From: Ginglymostoma cirratum
Lineage: Eukaryota
NCBI GenBank assembly: GCA_024137785.1
Contig: JAHRHZ010000078.1
Coordinates: 2,523,027 to 2,587,026, forward strand
DNA length: 64,000 nucleotides
Direction of reading: 5' to 3'
The position numbers were made by a program, and so were the translations under genes. Positions 15,470-50,214 of the stretch are shown here, piece after piece. Every line of letters starts with the position of its first letter. The stretch's first letter is position 1. The notes beneath the pieces are model-generated. The model did no database searches. It was not told the DNA's origin and saw only the letters and a list, made by a program, of their open reading frames with translations.

Positions 15470-15619
15470 CCAGTGGAGGCCACTGATGATGCATTCTGGG
15501 ATCAGTTCTGGGCTGACACGGCTACATCCATCCAGGACGTGTTCACCTTGGTGCCAGCAGCTGAGATCCGAGCAGTCAGGGAGGAGTCACCCTCTAACTT
15601 AGCCACCCTGTGCTATAAG
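15470..15619 (+). CDS. HID1: HID1 coding exon 2 (150 bp, phase 0/0)
   Basis: ttttgcag|CCA...AAG|gtacgg; encodes PVEATDDAFWDQFWADTATSIQDVFTLVPAAEIRAVREESPSNLATLCYK, recognised as the HID1 N-terminal region. Confidence 0.97.
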
Positions 15620-30329: not shown

Positions 30330-32100
30330 TCCTCCTGTGCTTAGTGGCCTTAATTACTAGTTACATCAGAATATTTTCACAGATTTACTTTGCCTGTGGT
30401 TGAACTTGAACTGATGAGAACTGAACTGCATATTTGAAAGGCACAGCAGAGAACGGCCTGCAATATTCAGGCAGTCAGCTCTTGAAAGTCTTGTTGCCTG
30501 TTTGACAGAGTTCCAGTAAGCCAACATTGTAGATAACAAGTCTTATCAGTCACAATAACATTGCATTTTCCCAACAGCTATTCTGTGTTATAGCTCCTAA
30601 TTGCATGTGGGCACAAAGCCAGTTGAAGTTATTCATTAACCAAGGTAAAATACCAATCCGAAAAAGCACACATCCTGTGTGGTTTGAAAACACAGCTGGA
30701 GTGTGTCTGAACTCTTACACTGCCATTGTCCTGGCCTGCAATTCATACCAAGAATAATTCCAAATGTTTTCTCTTGGATAATTTCAGTTTAGGGCTCTAA
30801 GATGCTTCTCAAAAGATTCACTCAGAGTTTCATCACTTTCAAAGGTTTTCTTTATTAGGTGTCAGCAATGATTCACGCTGTGTTTAAAGAGTGTGGAGAC
30901 AGGGAACTCAGAAACTCAAATAAGGTGTCGTGTTGAGCTGGTTTCCAGTGATTATAAAGGTTCTGCTTTCTGTCTTAGACAGTAAGTTGCAGATAAACCT
31001 GTGTTATAGCTGTGATGGGAGGAATGGGCTGGTAATCGAGCCCTAGTACCCCAGCAGTCTCACCATGAATATAATTCTAAACGAAAACAAAAATTAAAGA
31101 ACTGCGGATGCTGGAAATCAGAAGCAAAAACAGAAATTGCTGGGAAAAGTCAGCAGGTCAGGCAGAAAGCAGAGATAATGTTTCAGATTCAGTGACCCTT
31201 CTTCAGAACTCTGAATGTAACTTTTATCACTGAATTGTCTGACTGATACCCTTTAGTGCTACTATCAGAATGAAAGAGATTTTTGCCAATGTTCTTTAAT
31301 TGACTTAAAATAGTTTATTTGTAAACAAAGCTTACCCTTTAAACAAGTGGCAAACAATGGTTATCATCTAAGCTACAATCTGGAAGTAGAACGTTAGTTC
31401 ATTAAGAACGTTCTCACAATGTATATAGACAGCAGTCTCTGCAGAGATGGTGTTTTATTGGATGAGGCGAAAGGGGTGAAAAGCATCCTGTTGGCCAAGG
31501 ATCTGAAAAGGAAAGATAGAATGTGATGACTTCTCTCAGCCCACCCAGACAAAGTTGAACTGCTGATAGCCTTAGATTTTCAGTTTGGATTCAAATCAAG
31601 ATTGATGTGAGTCTTTGGAAAGTGGCCATAGTTCAGCTTTTTGAGGTTTATAAAGGTAGTCAGAGATACTGGTATTTGAAATCTTTATCAGGTTCCCAGG
31701 AACCTCTACTTGAAGGAAGGAGAGACATTTGCAGCATCCTTATTGATTACTTACGTCTGTAACGTAGAAAACTAAGTCCAGAAATGGTTTTTAGGCAACC
31801 ATTTGCAAAGATCCCTACAGTCTATTCAAAAACAGGTTTACTAAGTAACTACGGGTCATAAACCTCACTTCTGATATTGAGTCTTTGTGTTGAGGAGTGA
31901 TGGTCTTATTGTGTCTAGACGGCCATTTTCAAGTGATCAGAAGATGGTAGGCAGACTGTTTCTCGTTCTGTTTAGGAGAATGATTTGCAGACAGTCTTGC
32001 AGTGTTAAGGGTGGAGTCTAATGGATTGTTGGATATTCTCAGTCACCAAATGGTCCACATCAAAAAGCTGTGACTGCATTTCAAAAAAGCATTCGAACAA
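30330..32100 (-). pseudogene. Candidate second decayed LRR-protein (TLR-like) fragment
   Basis: Non-repeat-like sequence; minus-strand translations FSTLQT*VIN, TFINLKKLN, CLGGLREVITFYLS, HLFKG*ALFTNKLF*VN*RTLAKISF show LRR-like spacing. Confidence 0.3.
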
Positions 32101-33283
32101 AATATTGCAGCTGTTGCTAAATCTGAAATACCCAGCAGGTCAGCAGCAACTCTGGACAGAAAAACAGACAAAGGACCGTCAACATGAAACATTAACTCTG
32201 TTTCTGTCTCCACAGATGCTGCAAGACCTGCTGAGTTTCTCCAGCATGCTTTTATTTCAAAAAGTACTTCACAAGTTGTGAAGCACTGAATTATCCAATG
32301 GTCATGAAAAGCACATGTACATTCTTTCATGGGATGTGGGTAGTGTTGACTAGGCCTGGATTCAGTGCCCATCCCTAATTGTTCAGCGACCAAATCCCAA
32401 AAAGCGCACATCCTGCGTGGTTTGAAAAACACAGCTGGAGTGTATCTGAATTCTTACACTGCCATTGTCAGCCACATTGCCGTGGGTCTGGAGTCACATG
32501 TAAGCCAGAGCAGGTAAGAAAGACAGATTTCCTTCCCTAAAGGATATTGGGAAACCAGATGGGTCTTTATAACAGTCCACAATCTGCTGTGATTACATAG
32601 TCGCCATTGCCTCAGTTTATTACTGAATTCAATATGCACCATCTGCCATGGTGTCTATGTCCCACGTCCTCTGAATATTAACCTAGGATTCTGGATTAGT
32701 AGTCCACTCCAATTGCCACAATGCCATTGCCTCCTCACCTTTCTCTTCCATTCAGTTATGGGAGTAGAGGAATACAATATCCACGTATTGCAAATACATA
32801 TTAATATTTAAGAACTATGAGAAAAACTGGTAGAAACCGAACTGTGTCAACGTTTTTCGGCATTGATAAGGTTTATTTTTGGAAACGACGTCAACGTTTT
32901 AATGTGTGCTGTAAGCCATATGCTGTTTACAGAAAATTAGTTACATTTGGAGAAAAGACCAGCAAAGCTTTCAAGGAAATAAGAAGTGAGGTTTATGACG
33001 CATAGTTACTAAAACAAACCTCTTTTCAAAAAGGCTATAGGGACCTATGCAAATAGTTGCTTAAAAGCCATTTCTGGACTTAGTTTTCAATGTTACAGAC
33101 ATAAGTAATCAATAAGGATGCTGCAAATGTCTCTCCATCCCTCAGTAGAAGTTCCTGGGAACCTGATAAAGATTTCAAATACCAGTATCTCTGACTACCT
33201 TTATAAACCTCAAAAGGCTGAACTATGGCCACTTTCCAAAGACTCACATCAATCTTGATTTGAATCCAAACTGAAAATCTAAG
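31571..33283. repeat. Inverted repeat, arms 31571-31872 and 32982-33283
   Basis: cttagattttcagtttggattcaaatcaagattgatgtgag... is the exact reverse complement of ...ctcacatcaatcttgatttgaatccaaactgaaaatctaag. Confidence 0.95.
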
Positions 33284-34062
33284 TGTGTTGGCAGGTTTCG
33301 GGAAGTGATTATTCTCAGGGTTATATACATGGCCTTCAGCAGAGATCAGTGCTGAGTTTTCCAAGGGGCAGGAGAACATTAACACCAAATAGTAGGACGA
33401 TAACTAGGATCTTGGCCAAGTCCATGTATTTTAGTGCATAGGAGTTAGGCCATTCAGCCCATCAAGTCTGCTCCAACATTCAGTTATCTGCTGTGTTGTT
33501 TTTCTGACAGGCCCAGATGGAGGTCAAATGTAAACAGCAGAAGGAGCATGTAGAAACCTGAGCATCCCATCCACCTCCTCTTCAAACACCCTCTCCATCA
33601 GGAGGGCATGCAGTCCAACCGTGAACTGGTTAGTTACTTCACGGCCCACCAGACCAGAGTGGAAGAGAGCCATTCTCAACCCTGAGGGATTGTTTAAGAA
33701 GGGGAAGTACCCCGCAGTAGCCAGAAATCTCTCAATGTCTGTCTTGAGCACATTCAGTGATTGAGCTTCCACAGCCTCTGAGAATATTTAGTTTGTAGTG
33801 TCAGAAGAAAGAGAAAGAAAAACATGAATGTGAGGGCATCGCAAAACATTTCCGGTCAATACCATATGTCTCAGGTGTAATCATCATTGCTATATTTGGG
33901 AGCCAATTAGATATATACCAAATTGCCGTGGACAGTGCTGGAAGCCATGGCCCATTGCTTGTCCTTGATCAGATGGGAAATTAATGCTGTGCCCATGAAG
34001 GCAACGGGAAAGAGCTGTGTTGCAGTCTGTAATGGATGTTTATCTGATCTCTCTGTACTCAG

Positions 34063-40781: not shown

Positions 40782-41004
40782 GCATGCACTGCCGCTGTTT
40801 ACATCACTGTTGAACATTGTGTGTGCATATGACCCTGTGGGATATGGCATTCCGTACAATCACTTGCTGTTCTCCGACTACCGGGAGCCCCTGGTGGAGG
40901 TGGCTGCCCAGGTCCTCATCGCTACCCTGGACCATGATGCCTCCACCAGCCTGAGCCCATCTGTCGATGGGACCACAACGAGCACGGCCATGGATGATGC
41001 AGAG
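40782..41004 (+). CDS. HID1: HID1 coding exon 7 (223 bp)
   Basis: ctttcag|G CAT...GAG|gtagga; HALPLFTSLLNIVCAYDPVGYGIPYNHLLFSDYREPLVEVAAQVLIATLDHD...AMDDAE. Confidence 0.97.
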
Positions 41005-45474: not shown

Positions 45475-46810
45475 TGTTGTGTGTTTGTGTAAGAACGTTG
45501 GACTGTCACTTTAAGAATCTTACCACGTGACATCATGAAGACGTCACTGTCCAGTTAGGAGCGAAAATGCTCAGTCCAACCTTGCTGCTTGTAGAGTGAG
45601 TACCTGCTGTAATAAAACTCCCAATGTTATTGAACACTTTGGCCTCCTATCCTCACAATGTAACACAAGAAAATTGGTGACATGAATGGGATAAAAACTG
45701 CTGTGCGATCCACTGGGTCAATCCACTGATGCACTGAAAAAAAAATCATGGTCTTCACTACAGTTCGTGGAGGCACTTTGATTTAAAAAAAAAATCAAAA
45801 TACTGAACCAGGTACAGTTCACAAAATAAAAGTCATCTTTGGGAAGAGGTGAACAGTGCAGAAGAAGCTCACCCTATTCTCCACCCTGAAAGAACACTGA
45901 ATAACGAATACCCTACACCAAGGGAAATATTTTGAGATAAGAGCATTGACTCAGAAAGAAATAGGCAGCCTCAGGAATACTTTGTTTTAAATGGAAAAAG
46001 TGAGGCAGTGCTAAAATTCTCATGGTGCTCTCAGACCCTTTGCATTTTAAAACCAGTTTAAAATGACTGGAGGTTTTGATGCCATGGAACCATATGATGA
46101 CAACACAGAGCTGGAACTCCTACACAGAGAGGTTCCATTATTTGTTCAAGCTAACAAAATTGAAGCAAATATTGTTGTTCCTGTGTTCCAGAATATTTAG
46201 GGGAAAGACTTCCAACTTCCTGAGGGGTCTGATACAGCCAGAGAAGCCAGGTTCCAAAACTTCACAAATAGTAGGAATTCTCCAGAGTCATTTTTCACCA
46301 AAACCATTGGTGATTACTGAAAGGTTCAGGTTCACAAACAGATTCACCATCATGTTGGCTATATCTCCTGGTTTGCAGCAATTTTACGGAAGTTGGCAGA
46401 GTGCTGCAAATTCAAAGTCAATTTAAATGATGCTGTCAGAGACAGACAGGTGTGTCGTTCAAGATGTGAAGCAATCCAGAAGAGGTTATTGATCGAAAAG
46501 AAACTATACTTAAAACAAGCGCTGAAAGTAACAGTCTCAATGCAGCTAGCAGAAGAAGGAAGCTTAGCAGCTAAGTTTGAGCACACGAGTTCACAAAATG
46601 GCAGCAGAGAGAGTTCCCAAAATGCACCTGAAAGACAAGCATCAATGCAGATTTAAAGCTGCCATAGGTGTGGAAAAATAGGTCACACAGCAGCAAATTG
46701 CTGCTATAAAGAAGCTGAATGCAGAAACTTCGCTAAAGAAAGGCACATTGAATGTGTGTTTGAAGAAGAAAAACATAACCAGGATGACAATTTGCAATTA
46801 ATCTGTTCAA
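45475..46810 (+). mobile_element. Ty3/Gypsy-type LTR retrotransposon 5' part: LTR (45475-45670), PBS-like site and decayed gag
   Basis: LTR termini TGTTGTGT...ACACAAGA with internal AATAAA; followed by aaatTGGTGAC; gag motifs HFSPKPLVITERFRF, LNDAVRDRQVC, AIQKRLL; Zn knuckle CHRCGKIGHTAANC. Confidence 0.8.
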
Positions 46811-46811
46811 C

Positions 46812-48720
46812 AGTGACAACTACAGGTGCAATGTTGGTAATGCACAGTCAAGAGATCACCTGACAATTGCAGCCTTAGCTATGAGCTTTGGCCAAAAGCT
46901 TAATGATGAAGAAGCTAAAGAGGATGATCCTCCCGTCCTGCATTGTGAAGTTAGCAGATCAGATGCAACAGTACAATGGATAAAAGTATCCAGTCTACTT
47001 AAGTTGAGATGTCATTTCTTCCCCTGTTTCAGCCATGTCTTGGTGATAGCTGGATATCATACTCCCACATAGCAATCAATGTGCTCGGCTCAACAGTCTT
47101 ATACCCCACGCTACTTATATTGAATTAAATACATTTATCCCAGCCAAGCTCTTGATGTTTATTTTCTAGTCATTGTTTCAGCTGTATTCCGAAGAGTGTT
47201 GTTCTTCTTGCAGTGCATTTCCTTTTCTCTTCTCTTAATCTGTTAATGGTTTAATAGAGAACTCAGGGGCAACTTTTTCACCTGGAAGGTGGTGCGTGTA
47301 TGGAATGAAGTGCCAGAGAACGTAGTGGAGATGGGAACAAATACAACATTTAAAAGGCATCTGGATGGATACATGAAAATGAAGGGTTTAGAGGGATATG
47401 GGCCAAATGCTGACAAATGGGATTTTGGTTGGTGTGGACGAGTTGGACCGAAAGGCCTGATTCCATTCTGTGTGAATCTGACTCTACTTCAACCTCCTGT
47501 CAAATGTGAAACGAAGCAGAAAGTATCCATCATTTAGCTGGTCAGTGACAAACTTAAACCAAAGGACAGTGGAAGTTACACTTCTGACATTGAAGACTAA
47601 TGAATCAGTGCTTCCTTGAAAGTTAATCCCCTCCGGTACTTTTCAAACAAGTTCTTCAGAATAAGAAAGCTGCTAAAGTAATACCACCGCTGCACGCTGT
47701 GAGTTTACAAAGTTTGCTGCTCCTGTAGAATGGAGAAAGGGCAATATGTTGCTTCGTCCCACTGCCAAGTGTGAAGTAAAGCAAGTGGGTTCTGTTGCTG
47801 AATTTGAAACGAGAAAATGCAGGAGAATATGTACCTGTGATTCAAGAGATCAACAGGCCACAACTTCCCATAAAGTGAAAGGAAATCCAGTGGCTTTCAT
47901 GAAACCCTTGGATGACATTGTTTGGAAGAGAGAGGAATGAGCACCTTGGAATGTGAAGTATCAATACCCAAAGTCAGTCCTATCTGGCAAAAGTGGCATT
48001 TGGTTCAAGTGACAAATATGTTTTCTAGGGCATGACCTGAATGAAAGTGATGCTGGATTGTATACTTGGGACGTAGGCACCGACGGAGCAAGTGCTAAGG
48101 TCACCAACCAAGATCTAAACCTTGGAAAACAGCTACAGAGCACAGAGATTGAAGAAGATGAAAATAGAACTTTTGAATGCATGCTTTCTCATGAAAGTGT
48201 TAATGAATATTACTGGACTGTAAATGGTGTGTTAGTGGAAGGCAGCGAACAATTTGAGGTGTTTAATATTGGCCGAAAGTACATCCCTAACCTTAAGGAG
48301 ATGGCTTTTCTGGATGCTGGAGAGGTAACTCTCCATTTGCGAAATCTCAGCTCAAAAGCTTTCTTGATGGTGGAAAAAACCAGCAGAAATCGCAAAGCAA
48401 CATAAGAACTTGGTGTCGATAGAAGCTTAAGAGATTGTACTGAGCTGTGAAACCTGTAAGCCTGATTCTTCACTGAAGTGGTTTAAGCATAACAAAACAA
48501 TTAGAAAGAGTCATACATATGAAATGTCTCAACCAGGAACTGTAAACAAATTGCTAATGTCTCAAGTTCCATGCACAATGATCAGTGACCTCGCGCCAAT
48601 TTTAGTACTGGCCTCCAGTTCCAAAAGTTAGGGAAAAATGTTAGAGATAATGCTGCAAGTCACTACAAAGGGCACAGGAGAGTATACATGTGAAACATGG
48701 ATTTTTAAAGCCATAGCGTC
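46812..48720 (+). pseudogene. Intronless fragment of tandem I-set Ig domains, obscurin-like (processed pseudogene fragment)
   Basis: YRCNVGNAQS; VLHCEVSRSDATVQW; LKPKDSGSYT; APVEWRKG; ESDAGLYTWDVG; TFECMLSHES; VLSCETCKPDSSLKWFKHNKTIRKS; TGEYTCET; many stops and frameshifts. Confidence 0.75.
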
Positions 48721-48721
48721 T

Positions 48722-49200
48722 GGTGTTTGTGCTGTCCCCTGTGATATCCCCTGTACTGATGTTCCCACTGTCCCTGTGATGTGCCCTGTACTGGTGTTTG
48801 CACTGTCCCCTGTGATATTCCTTGTACTGAGTTTGCCAAATTGCCATTCATTTTTTCACAAATGCTTTACTCCAGATTAACTTGGATAGGCCAAATTGAG
48901 TTAAATGACAAGTCTGTTAGTGGTAATTAAGCACTGTTAAAGATGCTAGAGTATGATTTACTTGTTGAAGCTGTTACTCCGTAGCACCAAGAGGAAGTGA
49001 CAGAAAACAATACTGGCACCAGTGTGAAGGATAATGTACAGGACAGTGTAGACATCTGTGTGGGGGATATCACTGTACAGAACAGACAATACGTAGGTGA
49101 TATCACTGTGTATAGGGCTGATACTAATGGAGGGATTATCAGTGTGCAATGTGGACACCAGTACAGGGGATATCACTGTGAATAATGCTGACACCAGAGC
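48722..49200. repeat. Two oppositely oriented arrays of a ~35-bp unit (CTGTGATATCCCCTGTACTGGTGT)
   Basis: + copies at 48722-48830, reverse copies at about 49010-49200. Confidence 0.7.
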
Positions 49201-49561
49201 AGCAGATAACGCTGTGTGCTGACAGCAGAATGAGGGGTATCTTGGGTCAATGTGGATACCAGCAAAGAACATCTCACAGGACACCGTACAAACAGCAGTC
49301 CAGGGAACTTTGTGGAAAGTACAACGTCAGAACAGGATGAAGGCAGATTCATGTGGAGCTGTGCAAATTATGAACACTCCCTTTTAATTCACTTTATATG
49401 TGAACTGTCAGGGTTGCTTAAATTTGGAATACAAGACTTTATTACATAATGGTGCAACAAATTGCATATTGAATGGGAGTCTGCCTGGAAACTACTCTGA
49501 TGCAGTCAGTCTATGTCTGAAAAGTGGATATGAGTGATTGTATTTGTTTTCGGCTACTCAG

Positions 49562-49702
49562 GATTTCCAGTTCATTCTGAAAGGTCTGGCTCGTTTGTTA
49601 AACAACCCATTGCTTCAGACGTACCTACCCAACTCGACCAAGAAAATTCAGTTCCATCAGGAGCTGCTGGTTCTCTTCTGGAAACTCTGTGATTTCAACA
49701 AG
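49562..49702 (+). CDS. HID1: HID1 coding exon 9 (141 bp)
   Basis: tactcag|GAT...AAG|gtggga; DFQFILKGLARLLNNPLLQTYLPNSTKKIQFHQELLVLFWKLCDFNK. Confidence 0.97.
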
Positions 49703-50123: not shown

Positions 50124-50214
50124 AAATTCCTTTTCTATGCCCTGAAGAGCAGTGATGTCCTGGACGTCTTGGTGCCCATCCTGTACTATCTGAATGACGC
50201 CCGAGCAGACCAAT
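50124..50214 (+). CDS. HID1: HID1 coding exon 10 (91 bp, ends phase 1)
   Basis: tttggcag|AAA...CAA T|gtaagc; KFLFYALKSSDVLDVLVPILYYLNDARADQ(S). Confidence 0.96.

Follow-up and report, generated by a model that had tools for sequence, protein, structure and literature searches.

LTR retrotransposons are known to capture host mRNA. Tan et al (2016; PMC5131818) described fusions of this kind, which show microsimilarity where host and element sequence meet (in flies, a median of 6 bp) and later spread, and retroviral transduction, maize Bs1 and HERV-K/FAM8A1 are cited there as carrying partial gene or mRNA sequences. Pseudogenes derived from circular RNA have also been reported. Dong et al (2016; PMC4897178) listed 33 mouse circRFWD2 pseudogenes with MMERVK10C-int marked beside them, found LTR sequence to be enriched in the flanks of circRNA-derived pseudogenes and called the mechanism 'mysterious', and a review (PMC5408686) states that the association between circRFWD2 and MMERVK10C may suggest LTR mediation.

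Here we describe a Ty3/Gypsy family whose copies carry exons of the obscurin gene in a permuted order. As in the LTR-mediated retroposition set out by Tan et al (PMC5131818), the internal ORFs between the two LTRs have given way in part to an incomplete spliced host RNA: the host exons are intronless, ~3.0 kb of pol is replaced, the fusion microsimilarity amounts to 7 nt at the 5′ switch and to ~4 nt at the 3′ switch, where a small indel is also needed, and further retroposition was non-autonomous, here giving 22 dispersed loci with switch points in common where these survive. Unlike the cases in that paper, in the main text of which the word 'circular' does not occur, the RNA here appears to be a back-spliced permutation of exactly one turn. 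With the pseudogenes of Dong et al (PMC4897178) the family shares a non-colinear last-to-first exon junction, the lack of poly(A), many copies and an LTR association and, as in their high-confidence class, it has no sequence from exons outside the circle. It differs in that neither switch points nor a one-turn length are given in their main text and legends, and in that their cases come from mouse and human, with an ERV as the LTR case, whereas ours is a Ty3/Gypsy element in a cartilaginous fish. Host exons inside an LTR element are likewise found in retroviral transduction, maize Bs1 and HERV-K/FAM8A1 (as cited in PMC5131818), and the insert described here is without sign of selection. Neither circRNA-derived pseudogenes nor the capture of mRNA by LTR elements is new in itself; what appears new is a complete turn of which both switch points are mapped, in an element of the Gypsy type and outside mammals. 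Our literature search, which was short on subscription papers, found no report of one-turn circRNA capture with both switch points or of an obscurin-Gypsy family.

The window, a stretch of 64,000 nucleotides of contig C78 (2523027-2587026), contains within its positions 45475-48722, on the + strand, a single damaged Ty3/Gypsy copy in which spliced obscurin exons stand in place of the RT-RNase H-integrase region. It begins with a 5′ LTR (45475-45665, +; 191 bp, TGT...ACA, starting TGTTG and with an internal AATAAA) that has 44 family matches dispersed in the genome. The sequence-only reading had noted an LTR-like unit of 196 bp at this place; its nature as an LTR stands, and its length is revised to 191 bp with TGTAACA as its end at 45665, because the 3′ LTRs of other copies stop there. 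The PBS-like TGGTGAC of the same reading lies 9 nt past the LTR (45675-45681, +), and the motif is conserved in the equal position after the 5′ LTR in other copies. It is followed by the leader and a decayed gag (45682-46781, +), with numerous stops and frameshifts and 66-75% identity to family copies, in which a weak zinc knuckle (zf-CCHC, E 0.011, ~46657-46701) agrees with the earlier description of a gag ending in such knuckles.

Gag is joined at ~46775-46781, and not at ~46810 as had been proposed, to the 3′ part of obscurin exon E (~E152-267; 46775-46872, +). Bases 1-127 of exon F follow (46873-46999, +; 82% to C34:8001690, 126 bits versus 50 for the next best exon), then a later insertion of 481 bp with no strand assigned (47000-47480), which has an 8-bp target duplication of F120-127 and is common to the C75 copy, and then bases 120-266 of exon F (47481-47627, +; 77% identity). 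The 47250-47475 portion of this insertion is an interspersed repeat that we take to be LINE-like. The obscurin sequence continues with exon G (bases 1-267; 47628-47881, +; 77% to C34:7968852, 213 bits versus 70 for the next exon), exon B (47882-48112, +; 75% to C34:8039167), exon C (48113-48375, +; 82% to C34:8034994) and bases 1-255 of exon D (48375-48722, +; 87% and 78% to C34:8033941), the last with an 87-bp insert at 48559-48645. I-set matches were obtained in the window frames with E values of 2.7e-4 and 7.6e-4. Where about six consecutive Ig domains with uninterrupted linkers had been described, there are indeed six exon pieces on the same strand with intronless linkers, but the run is broken by the 481-bp and 87-bp inserts and the order is not that of the gene. 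The element is truncated within exon D, with loss of the second E piece, the integrase tail and the 3′ LTR. The 3′ parts of three other copies match only the 5′ LTR in the window, in accordance with the earlier statement that it holds no 3′ LTR; other copies do have 3′ LTRs.

The join between gag and Ig in the window is a secondary deletion, of roughly 0.6 kb, of the protease, the RT start and E119-152, and it is present only in the window copy among the copies compared. The gag-to-Ig interval of other copies measures ~0.5-0.7 kb in five, and ~0.9-1.0 kb in two with insertions, and contains the protease and the RT start; the switch lay at the RT start, past the protease, and an original fusion of gag to Ig, as first read, is set aside. 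The window and C75 copies are sisters, since both have an insertion at exon F127 as well as small deletions within E, as a comparison of window 46777-47424 with L078:5033-5684 shows. The C75 sister copy (L078) retains the pol/E junction.

The window copy lies in sense orientation inside an intron of a HID1-family gene (window 15479-59232, +; exons at 15479, 22507, 40783, 49556, 50124 and 59077), between the exons at 40783-40962 and 49556-49702. The latter (49556-49702, +) matches Hid1 PF12722, and the next exon (50124-50213, +) has Pfam matches to Hid1 (1.9e-5) and Dymeclin (1.2e-7). Elsewhere in the window, long inverted repeat arms at 31560-33294 (151 nt at 95% and 129 nt at 88%, spaced ~1.2-1.4 kb) are possibly a DNA transposon.

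The best matches of the insert are to the obscurin gene on C34, and exon B compares with the obscurin of turtle at 81% identity, of gecko at 73% and of Callorhinchus at 89%. The C34 exons are I-set domains of 267-273 nt, phase 1 and bounded by AG/GT, and they stand in the order A-B-C-D-E-X-F-G-H, with exon B 70 kb upstream of exon G. Turtle obscurin (P0001) has A-B-C-D-E and then F/G-type domains, gecko obscurin (P0002) has A-B-C-D-E, and a 5.1-kb contig of a related organism, presumed to be RNA, has B-C-D-E joined at identical boundaries. When the insert was aligned to this species' own obscurin locus, as the sequence-only reading had suggested, exon junctions were found to be crossed exactly; the Ig segment is neither a single large exon nor intron-bearing, and its junction is not a unique one with a target duplication and poly(A) of its own. 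Exon B is single-copy in the readable gene (the next C34 exons reach at most 39% in protein), and ~20 F/G-like exons are present in the obscurin region. Of its 400 kb, ~46 kb is N, in five large blocks that could conceal exons; the A-B and G-H intervals have no N blocks. Exon X, an intact Ig exon at C34:8012190 between E and F, has no counterpart there in turtle P0001, is missing from the insert and is likely an alternative exon.

The genome-wide junction search that had also been suggested revealed many copies of the chimera. When exon E, the Ig segment and the region around the junction served as queries, the insert came up at at least 22 loci on 18 contigs, a lower bound that takes in the window and both C17 matches, and part of which may be DNA duplicates (the two C17 matches; the window and C75). 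Exon-by-exon mapping covered 19 loci, the second C17 match being omitted as a duplicate and two later loci being mapped apart. The C17 matches (43.4-44.6 kb and 95.6-96.7 kb) have identical match patterns 52 kb apart, near the contig start, and represent either a duplicate created by the assembly or a duplication that took place recently. Many copies retain gag upstream of the insert or, downstream of it, a 3′ LTR, both LTRs (TG...CA) survive in three (L061, L063 and L073), and a PPT precedes the 3′ LTRs. The decayed full-length relative L080 has RT_RNaseH_2 (2.5e-11) and then rve (1.2e-6), which is the Ty3/Gypsy order; the protease gave a weak RVP match (0.028) in the chimeric L071, and the RT core was recognised by eye only, the Pfam search giving no RT match. 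Target-site duplications of the 4-6 bp class were recovered in none of the three two-LTR copies, the LTRs of which have diverged by K2P 0.31-0.35; L061 (C92, ~4849.7-4853.5 kb) is flanked by a direct repeat of ~65 bp, far above the Gypsy target-duplication length. In L068 (C289) and L072 (C23), some stretches of the element run in the opposite orientation to the remainder. At L077 (C53), a 588-codon stop-free frame and a 1.5-kb direct repeat lie close to the chimeric copy and probably belong to a younger element. Two copies, L074 (C99) without F and L075 (C17) without C, were considered as alternative splice forms and rejected: they are single-domain register deletions between homologous sites of neighbouring Ig exons, with E/F and C/D hybrids.

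The family has the architecture LTR-gag-PR-RT start, followed by E(119-267)-F-G-B-C-D-E(1-~121/126) with no introns at the linkers, and then integrase tail-PPT-LTR. At the 5′ switch, pol is followed by exon E starting at 118-122 in all 12 copies keeping their 5′ end, and the pol frame runs on into the exon E frame. The 7-nt motif GGCAGAA equals E119-125; of 14 non-chimeric relatives, 6 have it unaltered at the corresponding place in pol and 8 have variant forms. At the 3′ switch, E ends at ~121-126 and the integrase tail follows directly, with PPT and LTR, in 11/11 copies keeping their 3′ end; homology is weaker here (~4 nt, with a small indel required), and neither poly(A) nor a target duplication is present at either insert end. 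Non-chimeric relatives have the unswitched tail in 13 of 20 and Ig in none of the 20. The figure of ~3.0 kb for the replaced pol was measured in L080 and includes that element's own insertion. One-base loss in the integrase tail just past the 3′ switch is common to L062, L070, L071 and L073 and hints that these four form a sub-lineage and that copying took place in more than one round. The earlier proposal that spliced obscurin RNA was captured by template switching and replaced pol is supported by the exact exon junctions, the microhomology at the switch and the multi-copy chimera.

The accompanying proposal, that the captured RNA was a colinear internal piece of mRNA, gives way to a circular permutation with a G-to-B junction. 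The last base of exon G (G267) abuts the first base of exon B (B1) at base level in 14 copies; in the window this back-splice junction is set, also at base level, at 47881/47882, with the final base of exon G as its donor side. The 30 nt to the left are closest to the end of G, as compared with the end of A and with intron, in all 14 copies retaining the G end, and the 30 nt to the right are closest to the start of B in 14/14 (weakly in 3). Over 120 nt, G is the best among all mapped exons in 13 of the 14, the exception carrying an insertion there. All copies come from one capture, and the 14 junctions therefore count as one event. Exons A, H and X are carried by none of the 19 mapped copies, and genome searches with A and with H gave no dispersed matches. 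For exon E, all 18 non-self matches fall to one or the other side of the E110-150 zone, starting at 110-122 or ending at 120-145, and the two E halves are near-equal in closeness to the single E exon (67-85%, with 92% over a single 52-nt piece). Because the six exons sum to 1,605 nt, the insert is longer by 3-8 nt than a single turn of a B-to-G circle. The chance of an exit within 8 nt of the entry is 8/1605, or ~0.5%, if exit is uniform on a longer template, a figure weakened by the fact that one short motif could favour both switches. The G-to-B back-splice junction and the circular permutation point to a circRNA. The alignment of four contig runs covered B-E only and was unable to show the G-to-B joint, and among the pieces listed there was only the linear B-C-D-E contig; the protein stretch spanning the junction gave three candidates in other species, none of them significant. 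Inverted repeats flanking the circle (A-B/G-H, 10 hits) are unspecific, since they are no commoner than in control intron pairs (A-B/F-G, 9; A-B/E-F, 7).

Judged from the arrangement of these sequences, it is probable that the permuted insert originated from a circular RNA, was captured by an LTR element through double template switching and then spread non-autonomously. According to the model, obscurin pre-mRNA would have been back-spliced from G to B with X skipped, so that cells of the germline or the early embryo would have contained a circle of 1,605 nt, and this circle would have been co-packaged into a Gypsy particle. Minus-strand synthesis would then have jumped from the integrase tail to the circle at E121-126 and made one round, until the template was exhausted at the entry site, most likely cut there by the RNase H of RT, whereupon RT would have returned to pol at the GGCAGAA common to pol and E. 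The resulting chimera, retaining LTRs, PBS and PPT, would have been copied by autonomous relatives in one old burst. The RNase H of RT cuts the template a short way behind the growing end, so that the circle would be opened near the entry and the copy limited to one turn. Given a circular origin with LTR capture, the RNase H step is somewhat better than even; a circle nicked at the entry beforehand fits equally well and would give the same product. The complete proposition, that a Gypsy RT went round a host circRNA exactly once and was halted by its own RNase H cut, and that the element then spread the circle, is to our mind evenly balanced. Counted against the capture reading are the access of a muscle-gene circle to the germline, for which we offer no explanation, the N blocks in the obscurin region, the weak 3′ homology and the unrecovered target duplications.

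Alternatively, the same double template switch could have taken up a linear obscurin RNA with repeated exons, arising from trans-splicing or exon repetition. Linear exon-repetition transcripts also yield an exact G-to-B junction, but with such a template the absence of A and H, and the location of entry and exit within the same 3-8 nt of exon E, one unit apart, are left without reason. Although other routes as well as circularization give non-colinear junctions (Dong et al, PMC4897178), we regard a linear template as unlikely. An ancestral genomic tandem duplication of B-G, since lost or masked, could instead have supplied a normal mRNA with a G-to-B′ junction; the tandem Ig region of obscurin has been expanded by exon duplication, as its ~20 F/G-like exons attest, and ~46 kb of it is unreadable in large blocks. 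However, exon B is single-copy in the readable sequence, no N blocks lie in A-B or G-H, B-C-D-E is single in the turtle and gecko proteins, the two E halves are about equally near one E exon and the one-unit length would have no explanation, all of which makes such a duplication very unlikely.

Still less probable is an origin in which a LINE made a retrocopy of the circRNA that, as DNA, inserted into a Gypsy element or recombined with one, after which the hybrid spread. Pseudogenes derived from circRNA are known in mouse and human (PMC4897178) and copies of this age could have lost a short tail, yet neither insert end has poly(A) or a target duplication, ~3 kb of pol is missing and not interrupted, and pol and E share microhomology at the 5′ junction; this combination is the pattern ascribed to template switching by Tan et al (PMC5131818). 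As for the initial reading of a colinear internal obscurin mRNA piece fused straight to gag, the spliced exons and the same-strand fusion in the window are in its favour, but the permuted order, and the protease and RT start found between gag and Ig in other copies, refute it unless the host locus is misassembled, and the turtle protein speaks against misassembly; its probability is close to nil.

Compared with the column-wise commonest letter, the copies differ by K2P 0.13-0.19 (0.09 in one short copy), while the median pairwise distance among them is 0.29, the LTR pairs of the three two-LTR copies differ by K2P 0.31-0.35, and the host exons differ from the column-wise commonest-letter sequence by dS 0.22. 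These figures fit a single old burst shortly after capture. Selection on the insert was considered and rejected: the raw dN/dS of 0.73 became an observed/expected N/S of 0.99 against the observed mutation spectrum, with 639 synonymous, 1711 non-synonymous and 116 stop substitutions observed where 628, 1691 and 127 are expected under no selection. None of the copies is intact across the insert, the longest stop-free run across the junction being at most 116 codons, and neither the open frame nor the purifying selection of a domesticated or selected fusion gene was found. By their sequences, all copies are old and in neutral decay, with no sign of function today. Dating in years was attempted with a pedigree-based rate (7e-10 per generation; PMC10587355) and abandoned: it gave >2e8 generations, which is not credible, and therefore no year figure is given.

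The family preserves the two switch points together with the whole length of the template, and it predicts that LTR-mediated copies of circRNAs would span a single turn, with RT leaving the circle where it had entered. If true, one-turn copying would supply the missing mechanism for circRNA retroposition that was left open by Dong et al (PMC4897178), and the insert would be a datable fossil of an ancient germline obscurin circle. Such loci would resemble back-splicing in read data, and in annotation they would pass for 'obscurin-like' genes. Old genomes can thus hold records of ancient back-splicing, as permuted exons inside LTR elements.
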